Shown one piece after another: positions 11,816-21,851 of a stretch of DNA of 21,851 bases (position 1 is its first letter; every line of letters begins with the position of its first letter). A program made the translations under genes and the position numbers. The DNA lies in contig CAZWSR010000012.1 of assembly GCA_964636545.1 (NCBI GenBank), positions 1 to 21,851 on the forward strand, written 5' to 3'. This stretch comes from Candidatus Undinarchaeota archaeon (lineage in GTDB: Archaea; Undinarchaeota; Undinarchaeia; Undinarchaeales; UBA543). The notes under the pieces were generated by a model that worked only from the letters and a program-made list of their open reading frames with translations, had not been told where the DNA came from and ran no database searches.

Positions 11816-12017
11816 TGGACCCACAGGGATTTGAACCCTGGGCCTCCACCTGCTTCGATTTACTCAAATGAGTAGATACCCGTAATCCAATTGTGGGATT
11901 CGCGAAGCGAACTCCCACGTGGAGGTATCGGAACCGGGGCAAAGGCGAAAACTTCACCAAGGCCTTGCAGGTTCTGATTTGCGAAGGTGGCGATCTACCA
12001 AGCTGAGCTACGAGCCC
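11816..12017 (-). tRNA. tRNA-Ala(CGC) with a 128-nt intron at 37/38 (exons 12017-11980 and 11851-11816)
   Basis: Acceptor GGGCTCG/TGGGTCC-A with G3:U70, anticodon arm CCACC-TTCGCA^A-GGTGG, T arm CAGGG-TTCAAAT-CCCTG. One D-stem mismatch; CCA not encoded. Confidence 0.93.
11852..11979 (-). other. Archaeal bulge-helix-bulge tRNA intron, 128 nt, highly structured
   Basis: Central helix TTCG/CGAA with 3-nt bulges CA^A and GC^A, and three internal arms. Confidence 0.88.
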
Positions 12018-14658: not shown

Positions 14659-15840
14659 TTAAAGTCCTGCGTCTTGCTTCAGAACTTCTGCTTTGTCAGT
14701 TTTTTCCCAAGTAAAATCAGGGTCCTCGCGACCAAAGTGGCCGTAAGTTGCTGTTTTTCGGAAAATTGGTCTCCTTAGATCAAGCTGTTCCAATATGTCC
14801 TTTGGTTTCAATGGAAAGTGCTTTCTAACAAGCTCAACTAATTTCTCATCTGGAACTTTACCAGTGCCAAATGTGTTAACCATCACAGAAACAGGTTCTG
14901 CAACACCGATTGCATATGCCAACTGAATTTCACATTTCTCAGCTAATTCAGCAGCTACAATGTTCTTAGCAATGTGCCGTGATGCATAACTTGCTGACCT
15001 GTCAACTTTTGTTGGATCTTTTCCAGAGAAACAGCCACCGCCGTGGGAGCCAGTTCCGCCATAAGTATCAACAATAATCTTTCGACCAGTTAATCCAGAA
15101 TCTCCAGGAGGTCCGCCAATAACGAATCTGCCTGTTGGATTCACAAGGAATGTTGTGTTTTCATCAATCCATTCACCACAGATTGGTTTGATAACTTTTT
15201 CAATTATCTCATTTTTTGCATCCTGTGAAACGTGGTTGGTTGCAGAATCAATTACTGATTCATCGTGTTGAGTTGAGATAAGAATTGTGTCTGCTCTTTT
15301 TGGTTTTCCATCTTCATACTCAATTGTTACCTGAGACTTCCCATCAGTTCGAATCCAAGGAATTTCCTTACTTTTTCGAACATCTGAAAGTTTTTTAGTA
15401 AGTCTGTGTGCAAGATCAATTGGAAGAGGCATTAGAGTTGGAGTTTCATTACAAGCATACCCAAACATGAGTCCCTGATCCCCAGCACCTTGTTCTTGCT
15501 GTTCGCCCTTTTCTTCATCAACACCCTGAGAAATATCAGGACTTTGAGCATGCAATGCAACAACTACTGCGCACTGGTCAGCGTCAAAACCGATTGCAGG
15601 ATCATCGTATCCAGCTTCACGGATAACGTCTCTTGCAACGCCCTGAACATCAATGTAGCCTTTTGTTGTTACTTCGCCAGCTACAACAATTAATCCAGTT
15701 GTTGTAAGTGTTTCTACAGCAACCCTTGATTGGGGGTCCTGTTTGTAGAGAGCATCAAGCACTCCGTCTGAAATCTGGTCGCAGAGTTTGTCAGGATGAC
15801 CTTCTGTGACAGATTCTGATGTAAATAAGTGTTTAACCAT
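14659..15840 (-). CDS. metK: S-adenosylmethionine synthetase, bacterial/eukaryotic type
   Basis: [46 protein letters not shown] and YGHFGR; AGGTGA SD. Confidence 0.97.
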
Positions 15841-15876
15841 TTTTAATTCACCTTAGAAAAACGAAGGGAAAAAGAG

Positions 15877-15927
15877 TATATATAGGTTCTTGGCAGGAAT
15901 ATTCCAATAGGAATAAAGATTTATATA
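15877..15927. promoter_or_regulatory. Divergent promoters: metK TATA (15877-15884), operator TATTCC-AATA-GGAATA (15900-15915), regulator TATA (15920-15927)
   Basis: Perfect 6-4-6 inverted repeat between two oppositely oriented TATA boxes, with an extra GGAATA half-site at 15896-15901. Confidence 0.75.
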
Positions 15928-15949
15928 GGTTATGAATGTTATATTAACT

Positions 15950-16486
15950 ATGTTGCTAGAATCCATTGGAAAACGCAGAAGAATGCTTGGATTAACTCAA
16001 GCAGAGCTTGCGAGAAAAGCTGATGTATCACAGAGCATGATAGCGAAAATAGAAGCTGGAACACTTAGCCCAAGCTATGACAAAGCACAAGCAATTTTTG
16101 AATCACTTGAAGAACTGGAAAAAGAAAAATCATTAAAGGCGCGGGATATTGTTCATAAAACTATAGTTGTTGTAAATGCAAGTGATCAGATTGATACTGC
16201 AATTAAATTAATGAAACAGAAAGGGCTGTCGCAATTGCCTGTTTTTAATAGAAAACATCTTGTTGGACTTGTTTCTGAGAAAAATATTGTAGAAAATCTT
16301 GGAACAGATAATCTCGGTACTCAAAAAATTTCAACAATAATGGAAGAAGCTCCCCCAACAATTTCTGAAGATACTCCAATTAAATTGGTTTCTGAATTAT
16401 TGAAATATAATTTACTAGTTGTTGTTTACAAAAAAGCAGAATTGGTTGGTGTTATTACTAAAGCGGATTTGTTGAAAACAATATGA
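15950..16486 (+). CDS. Transcriptional regulator: XRE-type HTH plus a tandem CBS pair (COG3620-like)
   Basis: RRMLGLTQAELARKADVSQSMIAKIEAG HTH, then two CBS repeats (SQLPV..LVGLVS; LVGVITKADLL). TATA position favours a leaderless ATG at 15950 over 15932. Confidence 0.9.
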   Translation: MLLESIGKRRRMLGLTQAELARKADVSQSMIAKIEAGTLSPSYDKAQAIFESLEELEKEKSLKARDIVHKTIVVVNASDQIDTAIKLMKQKGLSQLPVFNRKHLVGLVSEKNIVENLGTDNLGTQKISTIMEEAPPTISEDTPIKLVSELLKYNLLVVVYKKAELVGVITKADLLKTI

Positions 16487-16519
16487 AACCTTAAATATTA
16501 GAAAGAATAGAGAGATAGT

Positions 16520-16789
16520 ATGAGCAAGATTGAAGAACTTAATGAAAAAACATATGTGTTTGAGCTACGTGAGGGAATGGATGGAGCAAGTGCATATGAC
16601 CTAGCAGAGGACTTGCGAAAATTTCTTAAGAAAGAGCGAAACTGGATTGTAAAAGATATTCACATTACCGGACATCAGACCTATGGAACCATGTATTTTC
16701 TTTGCTCAAAAGAAATTAAAGGACATAAAGCAGATATGTTAGTTGAAAAAGTTAATGGAAAAGTAGGAACGCATATTGTAATGAAATAA
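16520..16789 (+). CDS. Hypothetical protein, 89 aa
   Basis: Protein-like ORF filling the gap, with its own TATA-like box at about 16491-16498; no family recognised. Confidence 0.65.
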   Translation: MSKIEELNEKTYVFELREGMDGASAYDLAEDLRKFLKKERNWIVKDIHITGHQTYGTMYFLCSKEIKGHKADMLVEKVNGKVGTHIVMK

Positions 16790-16790
16790 G

Positions 16791-17423
16791 TTATTCATTT
16801 ACTTCAAGTTTCTCTAAAATTTCAGCCAGTACATTTTTCATTCCAACAGCACCATCAATATCAATTAAAATTCCAGCCTTTTTATAATAATTAATAATAA
16901 GCTGTGCATTTTTATGATAAAGACTCAAACGTTTTGCAATTCCAGCTTGATCGTCATCTTTCCTCATAACTAAAGCACCACCACACTTACACTTACCTTT
17001 AACTTTGGGTGGTTTGAAGTCTAAATTGTAAACTTTCTTACATACAGAACAGGTTCGTCTTGCAGATAATCTGTTAATAACGTCTTCATCAGGAACCCTG
17101 AGATTAATTACTGCATCTAGTAGAATGATTGAATCCAAAACTTCGCATTGATGAACATTTCGTGGATAGCCGTCTAGTATGAAACCATTTTTGCAATCGG
17201 ATTCAACTAACCTGTCTTTAATTAATGCATCAGTAAGTTCATCAGAAGCCAGATTACCTGCATCAATAATCTTCTTTACTTTCATGCCCAAGATAGTTTT
17301 GCGTTCCATATTGTCTCTGAAAATATCGCCAGTAGAAATATGAAGTATGCTAAGCTTTTTTGCAAGCTTTTGCGCTTGCGTTCCTTTTCCTGAACCTGGT
17401 GCACCAAGTATTACAAGTTTCAT
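16791..17423 (-). CDS. adk: Adenylate kinase, bacterial-type with a Zn-binding LID
   Basis: GAPGSGKGT, HISTGDIFR, GFILDGYPR, CSVC..CKC and RKDD. Confidence 0.93.
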   Translation of the reverse strand: MKLVILGAPGSGKGTQAQKLAKKLSILHISTGDIFRDNMERKTILGMKVKKIIDAGNLASDELTDALIKDRLVESDCKNGFILDGYPRNVHQCEVLDSIILLDAVINLRVPDEDVINRLSARRTCSVCKKVYNLDFKPPKVKGKCKCGGALVMRKDDDQAGIAKRLSLYHKNAQLIINYYKKAGILIDIDGAVGMKNVLAEILEKLEVNE

Positions 17424-17476
17424 AGTTATTATTAGAAAAACGTGTTATTTAATATTAACTATGATAAAAAAAGATA

Positions 17477-17553
17477 TGGTGGGCCCAATGGAATTTGAAT
17501 CCATGACCTTTCGATTATCAGTCGAACGCACCACCAAGCTATGCTATGGGCCC
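17477..17553 (-). tRNA. tRNA-Ile(GAU), CCA encoded, no intron
   Basis: GGGCCCA TA GCAT AGCTTGGTG GTGC G TTCGA CTGATAA TCGAA AGGTC ATGGA TTCAAAT TCCAT TGGGCCC ACCA. Confidence 0.96.
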
Positions 17554-17653
17554 AATTGCTAGTTTGTAGTAAATTCACATAATAAAAAGGTTTTGGTGAT
17601 TAGAAAGAACCTTTAATTAATTATTTAAATACCCCAAAACTACCTTTTTACTC

Positions 17654-18478
17654 ATGGTGAAACAACTTAGAATCGGAATTACTTCAAAAGTGTATAGGCC
17701 AGACATTATTAAGGCAGCAAAGGAAACAGCAGCTTACCTTGATGGAAAGTGTAAACTTTACATGAAAAAGGAGCTTGCTAGTAAAACCGGCTTCAAGGGA
17801 CCTTCTATTAATTTCAAAACCACTAAATTAGACATCATTATGCCAATTGGTGGAGACGGAACTTTACTTCATACAGTTGACCAAATCAAAGGACGCAAAA
17901 TTGGAGTGCTTGGAATAAAGCGCGGAAGCAAAGGATTTCTAACTGAAGTAGATCATGACATGGAAAAAAAGCTAGATGCTGTTCTGAGGGGGGATTATTT
18001 TATTGATGAACATTTGAAACTAAATGTTTATTTGAATGATAAGAATTTAGGAGATGTATTGAACGATGTTGTACTGAGCACTGCTCTACTTGGCAAAATT
18101 CAGAAATTTGATATTGAAGTTCATGGCGATGCAATGGACACTGTTTCAGCAGATGGAATTATTCTTTCAACTCCAACTGGCTCTACTGCTTATGCTTTAA
18201 GTGCTGGCGGACCTGTACTTGACCCAACACTTGATGCTTATGAAATCACACCAATCAGCCCGTTCCGGCTGAATTCAAGATCAATAGTTATACCAGCAAA
18301 TGCAGTTACAAAAGTCAAAATTGTTGGCAGACATAACGGAATCGCCACCCTAGATGGTTTTTACAGGTATAAAATAAAGAAAACAGATACTCTAAAAATC
18401 ACTCGCTCAAAAAATAAAGCATACTTTATTAAATTCAACAAAAACTATTTAAGAAAAGTTAGGAAAGCACTATCGTGA
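17654..18478 (+). CDS. nadK: NAD(+) kinase
   Basis: GGDGT, LND and DGIILSTPTGSTAYALSAGGP motifs. Confidence 0.94.
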   Translation: MVKQLRIGITSKVYRPDIIKAAKETAAYLDGKCKLYMKKELASKTGFKGPSINFKTTKLDIIMPIGGDGTLLHTVDQIKGRKIGVLGIKRGSKGFLTEVDHDMEKKLDAVLRGDYFIDEHLKLNVYLNDKNLGDVLNDVVLSTALLGKIQKFDIEVHGDAMDTVSADGIILSTPTGSTAYALSAGGPVLDPTLDAYEITPISPFRLNSRSIVIPANAVTKVKIVGRHNGIATLDGFYRYKIKKTDTLKITRSKNKAYFIKFNKNYLRKVRKALS

Positions 18479-19305
18479 TTTTGAAAAGGCACAAGGACTC
18501 TCATAAAGGATTAAATGGCACTATTTTAGTTGTTGCAGGCTCAAAAATTTATACAGGAGCTCCTGTTTTTTCAGCATTAGGTGCAATGAGGGCTGGCGCT
18601 GACCTTGCTATTTTAACTACACCAAAAAGAGCAGCAGATATTGCAGCAACTAATCCAGATTTAATCACAGTGCCGCTGGATGGCGATTTTCTTAAACCAG
18701 TTCATGTAAAAAAGATTCAAAATTACTTTGATAAAGCAGATGTAATGGTTCTTGGACCTGGATTGGGTGAGGACAAACTTACAAAAAAAGCAATTTTGGA
18801 ACTTATTACACAATTCAATAAACCAATTGTAATTGATGCTGATGCACTGAAAGCTTTAAAAAATAAAACAAGTGTTTTGAAAGGAAAAGACATAATTTTG
18901 ACTCCACACAGAAAAGAATTTGAAAAATTAAGTGGATTGACTGCTACTGAAAAATCTGTTCACAAATTTGCAGATGCGAAAAAATGTGTTGTTCTTATGA
19001 AAGCTCCAACGGACATTATTTCAGATGGAGAGCAAGTTAAATTAAATAAAACTGGAAATCCTGGAATGACTGTTGGCGGAACAGGAGATGTTCTTGCAGG
19101 AGTTGTTGCTGGGCTAGCTACTCAAAATATTGGATTGTGTGAAGCAGCTGCTTTTGGTGCTAAAATAGTTGGTACTGCTGGCGATTTAGCTTATGCTGAA
19201 AAAGGATATGGATTGCTTGCAAGTGATGTTTTAGAAAAAGTGCCAGTTGCAATGAAAGGAGCTATAGCGGGTAAAGTACCTTATATTCGCCGCCGCAGAA
19301 TTTGA
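18475..19305 (+). CDS. nnrD: ADP/ATP-dependent NAD(P)H-hydrate dehydratase (stand-alone NnrD)
   Basis: HKG..G.ILVVAGS..YTGAP, GPGLG, DADAL, TPH..EF and GGTGDVLAG; GTG start overlaps the nadK stop. Confidence 0.9.
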   Translation: MILKRHKDSHKGLNGTILVVAGSKIYTGAPVFSALGAMRAGADLAILTTPKRAADIAATNPDLITVPLDGDFLKPVHVKKIQNYFDKADVMVLGPGLGEDKLTKKAILELITQFNKPIVIDADALKALKNKTSVLKGKDIILTPHRKEFEKLSGLTATEKSVHKFADAKKCVVLMKAPTDIISDGEQVKLNKTGNPGMTVGGTGDVLAGVVAGLATQNIGLCEAAAFGAKIVGTAGDLAYAEKGYGLLASDVLEKVPVAMKGAIAGKVPYIRRRRI

Positions 19306-21532
19306 TTATCAAGTCGCAAACTTCTTTCAGAACTTTATCAACTTTTGCTTGAGGAATATTTTTATTTCCTTGAACACAAACAACACAACCTTGTGTATCG
19401 CGCTCAATCTTGACTTTTTCATGCTCTTTTGTAAGCCATCTTGTTATAACAGAATCTGATTCATCAGCAAGAACCTGCTCACCCTTGTGGATTTTCGAAG
19501 GCCTACCTGAACCAATTGGCACAAATTTTTCAGAACCGTCTGTAACTTTTAATAATATATTTCCGTCAATTGCTCGAACATCATAAGCACCCATAATCAT
19601 TCCGTGCCTGAATGCAACCATATTATAAATGTCAGTAACTGTGTTAATATTAGGGAGCTGTTTTGCGTTTTCAACAAACTTGACCAGATTTTCGCAGGAC
19701 AAACCTTCAGTTCCTTTGTCAATTTTGTCAAGCAAATATCGATAGGACTCAACTGTTTCCATAACTTTGGCGCGGTCAAAATTTTTGAGAGCTGATTTTT
19801 TCAAGCGCTCAAGTTCTCCAGAACGGCGCTGAACCTTGATTCCTTTAACTTCAGCTAGAGCAATTGAAACATCATTGGATTCAATTTGTTTTTCAATTGC
19901 AGGATCAACAATAACTTTCTTGTCAGTGTATTCTGGCTCCTTGATTTCAATTTCAACTTTCTGGATAAGTGGTGTTGGCTTATTAATTTTCAAACCAGGA
20001 GTAAGGAATTTGGCTGCTGTGCTCCATTTTGTTTTTTCAACTTCGCCTTTTTGACCAAGCTGTTCCCAAATTGCTTGAGCAGTTGATGGAATAAAAGGAG
20101 AAGCAAGCACTGCAATTGTCTTGACAATATTTGTTGTAACATATAATGAAGTTGGGCTTTTGGTTTTCCATGGTTCTTTTTCATTCAAGTACTGATTTCC
20201 AAGGCGAGCAAGCTCCATTACTGACTTAAGTGCTTCAATTGAATTAAATTCTGAAAGTAGTTTTCCAACTTTTGCAGGTGCTTTTTCAATTGCTTCCAAG
20301 ACTTTATGATCAATTGCATCATATTTTCCTGGTTTTGGAACTTTTCCATCAAAGAACTTATTAATGAAAGTGAGAACTCTGTGAACGAAATTTCCAAGAA
20401 CATCAGAAAGCTCATTGTTAATTCGTGCTTCAAAATCTTTCCAAACAAAATCCATATCTGAATTCAGTGGAGTGTTGATTGTGAGGTAATATCGCATATA
20501 ATCGCCAGGATATTTTTTAACAAAATCATTTACCCAAACAACCCAGTTTCTAGAGGTACTCATTTTACGACCTTCAAGTGAAAGATATTCGCCAGCTTGG
20601 ATTGTGTGCGGGAATTTGTATTTGCCATGGGCTTTCAGCATTGCTGGCCAGAATAATGCATGATGATAAATTATGTCTTTTCCAATAAAATGAACAATTT
20701 TGCCGTTTTTCCAGTAATCAAGACCTTTTTCCTTGTTCCAATCCTCTGTTGCGCTAATATAACCAATTGGCGCATCCCACCAAACATAAATCACTTTGTT
20801 TTTTGCATCAGTTAATGGAACTGGAACACCCCAGTCCATGTCTCTGGTTATGCACCAATCTTTCAGGTTCTCAGTCCACGAGGATGCGTAATTTCTAACA
20901 TTGTCAGGAAGATCAGATTGTAGAAGATAATCTTCAAGGAAATCCTTGAATGAAGTTAATTTAAAGAACCAGTGCTTTGTTGTTTTTTTCTTTGGTGTGC
21001 TTCTGCAAACCAAGCAGAATGGATTTAGAAGTTCGCTAAGTGCTTGTCCGCATTGTTCGCAATGATCTCCTCGCGCACCATCAGAACCGCACTCAGGACA
21101 AGTTCCTTCAACATAGCGGTCTGGCAAAAATCTTTTGCAGGTGTCGCAGTAATATTGCTCAACATCTTTTGTGTAAACATAATCATTATCGTTTGCTGCT
21201 GTGAAAAATTCTTGAGCGTTTTTTATATTAGTCTTGTTACTGGTTCTTGAGAAAACATCAAACTTTATATTAAGTGAGTCAAAGTCTTTCTTGATAAGAT
21301 CATGATATCGTTTTGCGATTTTAACTGGTGTTGTTTTTTCCTTGTCAGCGCGAACAGTTATTGGAGTACCGTGTTCGTCAGTAGCGCAAATAAAAGCAAC
21401 ATCGGCCCCAGTCATTCTCAAATATCTTGCATAAATATCGCCTGGAAGATATGTACTTCGAATATGACCTATGTGCATTGCTCCATTTGCATAAGGTAAT
21501 GCGCAAGTTACAAGGAATTTGTTGTCAGTCAT
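19262..21532 (-). CDS. metG: Methionine--tRNA ligase with a C-terminal B3/B4-like domain
   Basis: ALPYANG, HIGH, Zn knuckles, YVWWDAPIGY and KMSTS. The last ~220 aa contain LPNINTVTDIYN..GAYD..IDG..GSEKFVPIG. Confidence 0.95.
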   Translation of the reverse strand: MTDNKFLVTCALPYANGAMHIGHIRSTYLPGDIYARYLRMTGADVAFICATDEHGTPITVRADKEKTTPVKIAKRYHDLIKKDFDSLNIKFDVFSRTSNKTNIKNAQEFFTAANDNDYVYTKDVEQYYCDTCKRFLPDRYVEGTCPECGSDGARGDHCEQCGQALSELLNPFCLVCRSTPKKKTTKHWFFKLTSFKDFLEDYLLQSDLPDNVRNYASSWTENLKDWCITRDMDWGVPVPLTDAKNKVIYVWWDAPIGYISATEDWNKEKGLDYWKNGKIVHFIGKDIIYHHALFWPAMLKAHGKYKFPHTIQAGEYLSLEGRKMSTSRNWVVWVNDFVKKYPGDYMRYYLTINTPLNSDMDFVWKDFEARINNELSDVLGNFVHRVLTFINKFFDGKVPKPGKYDAIDHKVLEAIEKAPAKVGKLLSEFNSIEALKSVMELARLGNQYLNEKEPWKTKSPTSLYVTTNIVKTIAVLASPFIPSTAQAIWEQLGQKGEVEKTKWSTAAKFLTPGLKINKPTPLIQKVEIEIKEPEYTDKKVIVDPAIEKQIESNDVSIALAEVKGIKVQRRSGELERLKKSALKNFDRAKVMETVESYRYLLDKIDKGTEGLSCENLVKFVENAKQLPNINTVTDIYNMVAFRHGMIMGAYDVRAIDGNILLKVTDGSEKFVPIGSGRPSKIHKGEQVLADESDSVITRWLTKEHEKVKIERDTQGCVVCVQGNKNIPQAKVDKVLKEVCDLIIKFCGGEYKVLYPL

Positions 21533-21578
21533 GGCTGAATATAATATAATTAGTTGTTATAAATGTTTTTGATAAGCT

Positions 21579-21594
21579 TATTCTTAATAGAATA
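21579..21594. promoter_or_regulatory. Second copy of the putative operator (TATTCT-TAAT-AGAATA), upstream of the metG TATA box (21556-21563)
   Basis: Perfect 6-4-6 inverted repeat with the same 15-bp gap to TATA as at metK. Confidence 0.7.
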
Positions 21595-21662
21595 TAGTAT
21601 AATTAAGTGAATTTCCTAGGTATTGAAAACCCTTAAATACTTACATATGTACATAAAAGAAC

Positions 21663-21851
21663 ATGTCTAGAGATAATAATAGGAAAGCTGAGATAAACAT
21701 ATTAGGGATTTTCAAAGTTATTCTTATCATAGTGGCGCTTGGTGGCGCTATTGTACTTTTTGGCTACTATTTCCTTGATTGGGACATTGCTGGATTTTTT
21801 GATGGTTTCGGTGGCGGAGGTAGCAGTGGTGGTGGATCAGCGAGTGTAGCT
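21663..21851 (+). CDS. 5' end of a protein with a class III (prepilin-like) signal peptide, truncated by the window edge
   Basis: MSRDNNRKA-EINILGIFKVILIIVALGGAIVLFGYYFL..GGGGSSGGGS, open to the window end. Confidence 0.65.
   Translation, partial: MSRDNNRKAEINILGIFKVILIIVALGGAIVLFGYYFLDWDIAGFFDGFGGGGSSGGGSASVA

Follow-up and report, generated by a model that had tools for sequence, protein, structure and literature searches.

The question raised by this locus is whether a short palindrome, which lies between metK and a divergently transcribed gene for a helix-turn-helix (HTH) protein with a pair of cystathionine beta-synthase (CBS) domains and which recurs upstream of metG, is the operator of that protein, and which genes the protein would then govern. 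The DNA that was analysed (hereafter the window) is a 21,851-nt stretch of a Candidatus Undinarchaeota archaeon and forms contig C12 of genome G000, an assembly of 840 kb in 39 contigs with 37% G+C and about 83% completeness; other genomes, contigs and loci are likewise numbered with the prefixes G, C and L. Taken together, the evidence is best explained if the palindrome TATTCY-N4-RGAATA is the operator of the adjacent HTH–CBS regulator, which would act on genes of methionine and S-adenosylmethionine (SAM) metabolism (Met/SAM genes) by the mechanism proposed below; this answer is considered probable. The elements of the window on which the argument relies are the following, in order of position.

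14659–15840, minus strand: metK, methionine adenosyltransferase of the bacterial/eukaryotic type, 393 amino acids (PF00438, PF02772 and PF02773; NCBIfam TIGR01034, 574 bits against a cut-off of 309)
15877–15884, minus strand: TATA-like box of the metK promoter, TATATATA, read from the sequence at the fixed offset of target promoters
15885–15899, minus strand: 15-nt spacer from operator 1 to the metK TATA, its TATA-proximal part resembling a TFB recognition element (BRE), purine-rich and with C-A at positions 8–9 from the operator
15900–15915, no strand: operator 1 (TATTCY-N4-RGAATA), common to the divergent metK and regulator promoters, TATTCCAATAGGAATA
15920–15927, plus strand: TATA-like box of the regulator's own promoter, TTTATATA, 4 nt from operator 1 and 22 nt before the ATG at 15950
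15950–16486, plus strand: regulator gene, 178 amino acids, with an XRE-type HTH (about residues 1–55) and a CBS pair (about residues 62–178)
19262–21532, minus strand: metG, class I methionyl-tRNA synthetase (MetRS) with a C-terminal B3_4 domain, 756 amino acids (PF09334 and PF03483; NCBIfam NF001100, 654 bits against a cut-off of 587)
21556–21563, minus strand: TATA-like box of the metG promoter, TTTATAAC, at the fixed offset after the operator and kept in G001
21564–21578, minus strand: 15-nt spacer with a BRE-like end, from operator 2 to the metG TATA
21579–21594, no strand: operator 2, upstream of metG and limited to the genus, TATTCTTAATAGAATA

Both operators are 6-N4-6 palindromes, and they differ by a symmetric change from C/G to T/A. 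The positions of the palindromes and this symmetric change, as well as the 15 bp that separate each site from the metK or metG TATA and the 4 bp between the first site and the regulator TATA, had been given in an earlier account of the sequence (hereafter the original prediction), and all were found as described when read again. The start of the regulator, formerly placed at 15932, was moved to the ATG at 15950 by alignment of orthologues; with a TATA-like box about 22 nt before this ATG, the regulator transcript would be leaderless. The metK gene, starting with the ATG at 15840, is of the bacterial/eukaryotic and not of the archaeal type according to its Pfam domains, and metG starts with the ATG at 21532.

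Sites were sought as matches to TATTCY-N4-RGAATA. With at most one mismatch, 0.31 matches are expected in the window, and two were reached in 3 of 100 shuffles. The whole G000 genome holds four exact sites against a mean of 0.69 for 120 composition-matched permuted palindromes, two of which (the real one included) reach four sites. The site count in G000 alone, which excludes chance only modestly, is suggestive, and the comparative data are decisive.

Conservation of the operator with its regulator

A search for regulator orthologues in 61 related genomes identified nine in which a bacterial-type metK stands divergently beside the regulator (G000, G001, G002, G003, G004, G005, G008, G037 and G060). 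The palindrome is present in all nine metK–regulator spacers, exact in seven and with one mismatch in two, and the spacers are otherwise diverged in sequence and in length (126–740 nt). At locus L007 of G004, where an insert of about 600 bp separates the two genes, the site remains at the metK side. The arrangement of operator and regulator TATA seen in G000 is conserved in G001, G002 and G003. This phylogenetic footprint upholds the original claim that the palindrome goes with the HTH–CBS regulator and metK: both the pairing and the site are kept in the genus, in the order and in other phyla despite diverged flanks.

The same site is rare elsewhere in these genomes. In five relatives scanned genome-wide, one to three exact sites each were found versus none for a reversed control pattern; the eight sites comprise four in metK–regulator spacers, one at metG of G001, two within long open reading frames (ORFs) and one at locus L038. 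Across all scans of relatives and other genomes the counts are 0–3 exact sites per genome versus 0–2 for the reversed control. Loss of the regulator goes with loss of the site: G006, G009 and G012 have no regulator orthologue (best E value about 5e-6), no site precedes their metK, which lies behind a tRNA gene (best matches with three or four mismatches), and none was found in their metG upstream regions. In G007, metK carries an exact site with the usual geometry, and the contig stops 244 nt upstream, so that the missing regulator match is uninformative there.

To follow the family further, 185,579 species genomes were scanned with an alignment of 12 orthologues as the query, and the best 80 of 326 relatives were analysed. 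These 80 loci come mostly from Bathyarchaeia and also from Woese-, Nanohalo-, Micr-, Aenigmat- and Nanoarchaeota and from Methanosarcinales. Within 150 bp upstream of the regulator gene, an exact site occurs in 47 of the 80 loci and a site with at most one mismatch in 68, and the density of exact sites is 47 per 12,080 positions upstream of the regulator versus 13 per 464,661 elsewhere in the loci. Nine of these 13 sites precede metK, metY or an archaeal-type metK; a tenth stands before metA (PF04204) and another before a gene pair for ThiS and a pyridoxal phosphate (PLP) enzyme (ThiS-PALP). A Met/SAM gene is the divergent neighbour of the regulator in 57 of the 80 loci, and the neighbours are distributed as follows.

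Bacterial-type MetK: 17 of 80 loci
Archaeal-type MetK (PF01941): 6 of 80 loci
HcyBio (PF01837): 6 of 80 loci, a CBS pair being confirmed in the two loci scanned
Cys/Met PLP enzyme (PF01053, Cys_Met_Meta_PP; MetY): 27 of 80 loci, 21 of which have a MetX-like hydrolase on the far side of this gene
MetX-like hydrolase alone: 1 of 80 loci
None of these Met/SAM genes: 23 of 80 loci

In 17 of the 23 loci of the last group the site still stands before the regulator, so the site belongs with the regulator gene, which indicates a cognate, autoregulated pair. Targets that are not linked to the regulator (metK, metY, metA and ThiS-PALP promoters) appear as well. Two Bathyarchaeia chromosomes (2.7 and 2.9 Mb) contain three exact sites each, four of the six being located at an unlinked metK (in both genomes), a metY and a regulator gene, and the remaining two within a gene and between convergent ORFs. 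Among more distant HTH–CBS relatives (L012–L033, 31–41% identity), a site that is exact or has one mismatch was found only in L014, L015, L017 and L024, and one with two mismatches in L022; L024 is the metK–regulator locus of G037 already counted among the nine. Given so few sites in this group, the operator belongs to a subfamily and not to all HTH–CBS proteins.

These data also bear on the idea that the palindrome is bound by another factor, or is a generic promoter element, with the HTH–CBS gene merely a frequent neighbour. The pairing of regulator and palindrome comes from sequence comparison, which leaves some room for this idea. It is nevertheless rated very improbable: the site accompanies the regulator in the 17 of 23 loci that have no Met neighbour, it is gone from both metK and metG in the lineage that has no regulator, and there are only 0–3 sites per genome.

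The operator is thus conserved in orthologous promoters, co-occurs with its cognate regulator and is rare elsewhere in the genome. Regulator and operator form a comparatively defined Met/SAM regulon in Undinarchaeota, Bathyarchaeia, Woese-, Nanohalo-, Micr- and Aenigmatarchaeota and Methanosarcinales, whose predicted members are SAM synthetase of either evolutionary type, MetY–MetX, MetA, HcyBio-CBS, the ThiS/PLP-enzyme pair and the regulator itself. The original prediction had confined the regulon to two methionine-consuming enzymes; metK was rightly named, and the breadth was underestimated, the family regulon being far wider and covering Met/SAM metabolism generally. In G000, a reduced genome of the DPANN archaea, the regulon appears to have shrunk to metK, the regulator and metG, the last as a genus-specific addition.

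Other features of these loci deserve mention. An 89-amino-acid ORF of no known family lies at 16520–16789 (plus strand), 33 nt 3′ of the regulator; it was rejected as part of the conserved system, being kept (46% identity) only beside the regulator of G001 and not in more distant loci. Short, repeat-rich, hairpin-forming inserts occur between Undinarchaeota genes, namely in the metK–regulator spacer of G001 (L005) and upstream of metG in G010 (L050) and G002 (L044), and look like miniature mobile elements. Two contigs in metagenome-assembled genomes labelled Candidatus Acidoferrum sp. and Gammaproteobacteria bacterium (L059 and L131) carry the regulator, L059 also having the operator and the divergent metK arrangement; both contigs are probably archaeal and mis-binned.

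Promoter geometry and the metG site

G000 encodes the TATA-binding protein (TBP) and transcription factor B (TFB), and the window carries an intron-bearing tRNA; archaeal BRE/TATA promoters are therefore to be expected. Promoter geometry was studied on 54 target promoters (53 distinct), written on the coding strand of the target. In all 53 distinct promoters, which are related and dominated by Bathyarchaeia metY (23 rows), so that the count is no statistical test, the operator is followed by 15 nt with a BRE-like end and then by an A/T (TATA-like) block. Counted from the site, every one of the 53 promoters has A/T at offsets 18–22, and 96% have A/T at offset 17; within the spacer, 44 of 53 have C at offset 8, the same number have A at offset 9, and A is present at offset 12 in 45 and at offset 13 in 50. 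Half-site variants occur, such as the AATTC form at HcyBio promoters. The layout is read as operator, 7 nt, BRE-like element and TATA, the promoter elements being assigned by sequence at a fixed offset. It is common to metK of both types, metY, HcyBio, metA, ThiS-PALP and two metG promoters, so that the spacing of exactly 15 bp to the TATA, first noted at metK and metG, holds as a family-wide rule. On the regulator side the arrangement is different: the site lies 4 nt from the TATA in G000 and overlaps the TATA position or the start region in Bathyarchaeia, L014, L015 and L017. That the site touches or overlaps the core promoter of the regulator gene in G000, its relatives and Bathyarchaeia agrees with the original suggestion and fits autorepression.

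A further feature of Bathyarchaeia metY promoters (L080–L129) is the palindrome ATAAC-N3-GTTAT, also conserved, which encloses the TATA position and keeps a constant distance to the operator. At L111:4300–4480, two operators 80 bp apart, each with ATAAC-N3-GTTAT, face outward to an Lrp/AsnC-like gene and a Zn-ribbon gene. This second palindrome may be the site of a second factor or a lineage-specific core promoter.

Does metG belong to the regulon? The proposed co-control of metK and metG is sustained for metK; the metG part applies to G000 and G001 only, which are two of the 12 metG upstream regions of the order. No site was found in G002, of the same genus as G000, where a hairpin-like repeat takes its place, or in the nine other regions, and outside the 12 there is a weak partial match in G004. 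Metagenomes searched for close relatives of metG added no upstream sequence other than those of G001 and G002. Two close genomes thus set the limit of this target, and it could be held that the site does not work, being a chance or decaying copy, or that its target is the divergent membrane-protein gene starting at 21663. The absence in G002 and in the nine other regions speaks for such a view, as does the fact that extra exact sites, examined in two of five other genomes scanned, include none at metG; moreover, contigs of a diverged relative (four DNA runs) fail to align across 21515–21625. Opposed to it is the comparison of G000 with G001: the two genomes share identical half-sites, the BRE-like end and the TATA, whereas three of the four central bases differ and the flanks and the rest of the spacer have diverged. 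The exact 15-nt geometry to the TATA and the BRE-like C-A point at metG, and for the divergent gene the site would lie about 38 bp upstream of the TATA, outside the target geometry. A non-working site is accordingly given about a minority chance, and a real, recent recruitment at the level of the genus is judged quite likely from this pattern; in comparative terms metG is a lineage-specific addition and not a core target.

The metG product itself is variable. MetRS residues 599–747 form the B3_4 domain (PF03483, 61 bits), which has the fold of the editing domain of the PheRS beta-subunit. The open frames of metG have 758–778 amino acids in the genus of G000 and in genus g5, and 536–553 in G003, G005, G007, G008 and G010, so the fusion of B3_4 to MetRS is lineage-specific.

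When the geometry is applied as a filter in G000, three zero-mismatch sites are left: metK, metG and C23:1810. The last (C23:1778–1825, L002) matches the operator exactly, has the complete 15-nt/TATA arrangement as well as a half-site downstream, and precedes an orphan 79-amino-acid ORF that is followed by an HD_4-domain gene and a 117-amino-acid ORF. Neither Pfam nor NCBIfam assigns a family to the 79-amino-acid product, and five related genomes contain no relative of it; the gene may belong to the regulon. C23, a contig of 5 kb that may be mobile, has in addition a gene for a 23S-rRNA-IVP/Avd-like protein. The fourth exact site of G000, C5:30122, was rejected as an operator and taken as chance, as it lies inside a 280-amino-acid ORF and has no promoter geometry.

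Elsewhere in the window, Rfam gives a 202-nt tRNA match (33.5 bits) at 11816–12017 (minus strand) that was not called by ARAGORN; it probably represents a tRNA gene interrupted by a long intron.

The regulator, its ligand and the direction of control

Membership of the regulator in the two families is clear. HTH_3 (PF01381) scores 46.5 bits against a cut-off of 23 over residues 14–59 of the 184-amino-acid frame, as expected of an XRE-type protein, and CBS (PF00571) scores 70.8 bits in two stretches, as expected of a CBS pair (Bateman module). An AlphaFold2 model (mean pLDDT 93) has four helices at residues 5–60 and a canonical CBS pair. Fold searches match the CBS part to solved pairs at a TM score (target) of 0.74–0.82, and neither sequence nor fold searches returned a solved structure with the whole HTH–CBS architecture. 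In source databases the protein is named 'predicted transcriptional regulator' or 'CBS domain-containing protein'. A prediction of the homodimer with SAM scored 0.14 against a mark of 0.42.

In 57 sequences, S94, L96, P97, G106, G167, K171 and D173 are invariant, and Q95, V98, E110 and T170 are conserved in at least 90%. The first CBS domain (CBS1) thereby has a conserved S94-Q95-L96-P97-V98, G106 and E110 and no conserved Asp; its Ser-Gln before L-P-V may correspond to the Asp-Gln within F-D-Q, the SAM-contact motif of human CBS, a correspondence that is given no weight here. In the second domain (CBS2), G167, T170 and D173 fit the ribose-binding signature G-h-h-T-x-x-D, with K171 also conserved. 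According to PMC4276868, the Asp and Thr of this signature in human CBS bind the ribose and the carboxyl of SAM. The CBS2 motif shows what looks like an adenosyl-ligand site and is not specific to one ligand. SAM is favoured as the ligand because the regulon consists of Met/SAM genes and because the CBS pair of MJ0100, whose HcyBio family is itself a target, is regulated by SAM and methylthioadenosine (MTA), as stated in PMC13381585.

The mechanism proposed on these grounds is as follows. The regulator would bind as a dimer, with one HTH per half-site and the half-site centres 10 bp apart. At its own promoter the bound dimer would block TFB/TBP, leading to autorepression, while at target promoters it would make a position-specific contact with the TFB/TBP complex and stimulate transcription. 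An adenosyl ligand in the CBS pair, most plausibly SAM, would alter DNA binding, and Met/SAM genes would thereby be tuned to SAM supply. Activation of targets is favoured because the site lies upstream of the BRE, never overlaps the core promoter and is placed with exact spacing.

Several observations weigh against this interpretation, the first of which concern the direction of control. Target promoters have good TATA and BRE-like elements, for which an activator is not called for, and many targets outside Undinarchaeota have an RGAATA-like half-site 2–3 nt past the TATA, at a distance of 32 bp, or roughly three turns of the helix, from the distal half-site of the operator; such an arrangement would be in keeping with a dimer of dimers acting as a repressor. 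It is seen in the promoters of the Bathyarchaeia bacterial-type metK, HcyBio, archaeal-type metK, metA and ThiS and at the C23 site of G000. The regulator could then be a MetJ-like repressor: the SAM-bound protein, seated on the palindrome and on the weak half-site past the TATA and oligomerised via its CBS modules, would clamp the core promoter and shut both divergent genes. Co-repression by an end product is a common logic of biosynthetic regulons, as for MetJ. Because of the downstream half-sites and the canonical look of the core promoters this alternative is kept, at a rather low probability. Against it, the Undinarchaeota metK and metG promoters have no downstream half-site, and the main operator never overlaps the BRE or TATA of a target; base-pair-exact spacing in 53 of 53 promoters is more typical of position-specific contact than of occlusion, and archaeal sites upstream of the BRE usually activate (Ptr2, TrmBL1, SurR and TFB-RF1).

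Other points on the same side concern the ligand. In sequence and fold searches the CBS pair resembles AMP/ADP-, SAM- and MTA-binding pairs to the same degree, and its identity to the CBS pair of HcyBio, at only 22%, is a generic likeness. It may thus be supposed that adenine nucleotides (energy charge, as reported for CcpN), S-adenosylhomocysteine or MTA, rather than SAM, are sensed: the closest solved CBS pairs by fold include the AMP/ADP-bound AcuB and MJ1225, ATP is used by both MetK and MetRS, and no sequence feature singles out SAM. A sensor of energy would, however, be expected at far more promoters than 0–3 exact sites per genome, and a regulon made up only of homocysteine, methionine and SAM genes argues for a pathway-specific signal; a ligand other than SAM is for these reasons considered unlikely.

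The remaining points concern the material. Bathyarchaeia make up most of the 80 loci, which are not independent of one another; the start codons assigned to their regulators are approximate, with an offset of 6 nt noted in Bathyarchaeia; sites chosen by pattern match make the position matrix partly circular; the assignments of TATA and BRE derive from sequence alone; and for metG, support comes from two close genomes only. With these points taken into account, an operator of the HTH–CBS regulator that activates Met/SAM genes and represses the regulator's own gene is still the preferred reading.

Relation to known regulatory systems

A full-text search, which did not extend to subscription journals and supplements, yielded no description of the regulator, of the operator or of any archaeal methionine regulon. 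As far as was found, the control of methionine and SAM synthesis in archaea, which are not known to have SAM riboswitches or MetJ, is otherwise undescribed; a scan of the whole window at Rfam gathering thresholds gave two tRNAs only and no match to a SAM family. Tentatively, and with somewhat less than even confidence in the whole, the system is put forward as the first archaeal Met/SAM transcription factor: a one-component SAM sensor, present from DPANN to Bathyarchaeia and Methanosarcinales, that would follow either type of SAM synthetase, contact TFB/TBP with base-pair exactness, activate its targets, repress itself and, in one genus of Undinarchaeota, have captured metG.

Among proteins with a similar architecture, CcpN (YqzB) of Bacillus subtilis is an HTH and CBS-pair repressor of gluconeogenic genes that is modulated by ATP/ADP. 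The regulator resembles CcpN as a one-component protein in which an N-terminal HTH is joined to a CBS pair, the sensor of an adenosyl ligand in CcpN and presumably in the regulator. It is unlike CcpN in that the latter is bacterial and has a carbon-metabolism regulon and another operator, whereas the regulator is tied to archaeal BRE/TATA promoters and Met/SAM genes; identity as a CcpN equivalog was rejected, since NF053704 scores 23.4 bits against a cut-off of 260, over the CBS part only. In its position the operator recalls the sites of Ptr2, TFB-RF1 and upstream-bound TrmBL1 and SurR, which also lie directly upstream of the BRE and have a position-dependent role. Those factors belong to the Lrp, TrmB and other families and have neither a CBS sensor nor a Met/SAM regulon, and next to them the 15-nt, base-pair-exact spacing across phyla is unusually strict. 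This constant geometry makes the contact of an upstream factor with TFB/TBP approachable through spacing mutants.

CBS domains in an archaeal transcription factor are also found in HhpR of Pyrococcus yayanosii, an activator with four such domains (PMC11705074). HhpR differs from the regulator in having no HTH and in serving the pressure response rather than Met/SAM control; the regulator was not taken for an HhpR, as NF053603 scores 26.4 bits against a cut-off of 520 and the architecture differs. Closer in metabolic context are the CBS pair of MJ0100 and the regulatory domain of human cystathionine beta-synthase (PMC13381585 and PMC4276868), both of which bind SAM and share with the regulator a CBS pair in sulfur amino-acid metabolism and the G-h-h-T-x-x-D of CBS2. 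In these two proteins, as described there, the modules are allosteric parts of enzymes and not of a DNA-binding protein. HcyBio-CBS genes, of the MJ0100 family, are among the predicted targets of the regulator. AmzR, as presented in a preprint, was set aside as a member of an unrelated family.

As a candidate for such control, the regulator and its operator are concrete and conserved widely, and the 16-bp site is well defined. Predicted targets lie on both the classical (MetY/MetX and MetA) and the archaeal (HcyBio) homocysteine routes, the site can be used as an annotation marker for Met/SAM genes in uncultured archaea (for instance the orphan C23 gene), and the CBS pair is a possible natural SAM-sensing module. 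The nearest functional parallels are bacterial: MetJ with SAM as co-repressor in Enterobacteria and the SAM (S-box) riboswitches of Firmicutes both provide SAM-linked control of methionine genes and metK. The proposed regulon has in common with them one SAM-linked signal over methionine biosynthesis genes and metK, and MetJ itself is also controlled. The effectors differ, MetJ being a ribbon-helix-helix protein that binds tandem 8-bp met boxes and the S-box being RNA, whereas here an HTH–CBS protein would act on a single 6-N4-6 palindrome; a MetJ-type regulator was rejected on the same grounds, with only CBS and HTH families listed in the Pfam scan and a single palindrome in place of tandem met boxes. 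A comparison of the regulons of the MetJ and S-box systems is contained in PMC4239095. If true, the proposal would make the regulator an archaeal protein counterpart of MetJ and of the S-box riboswitch.

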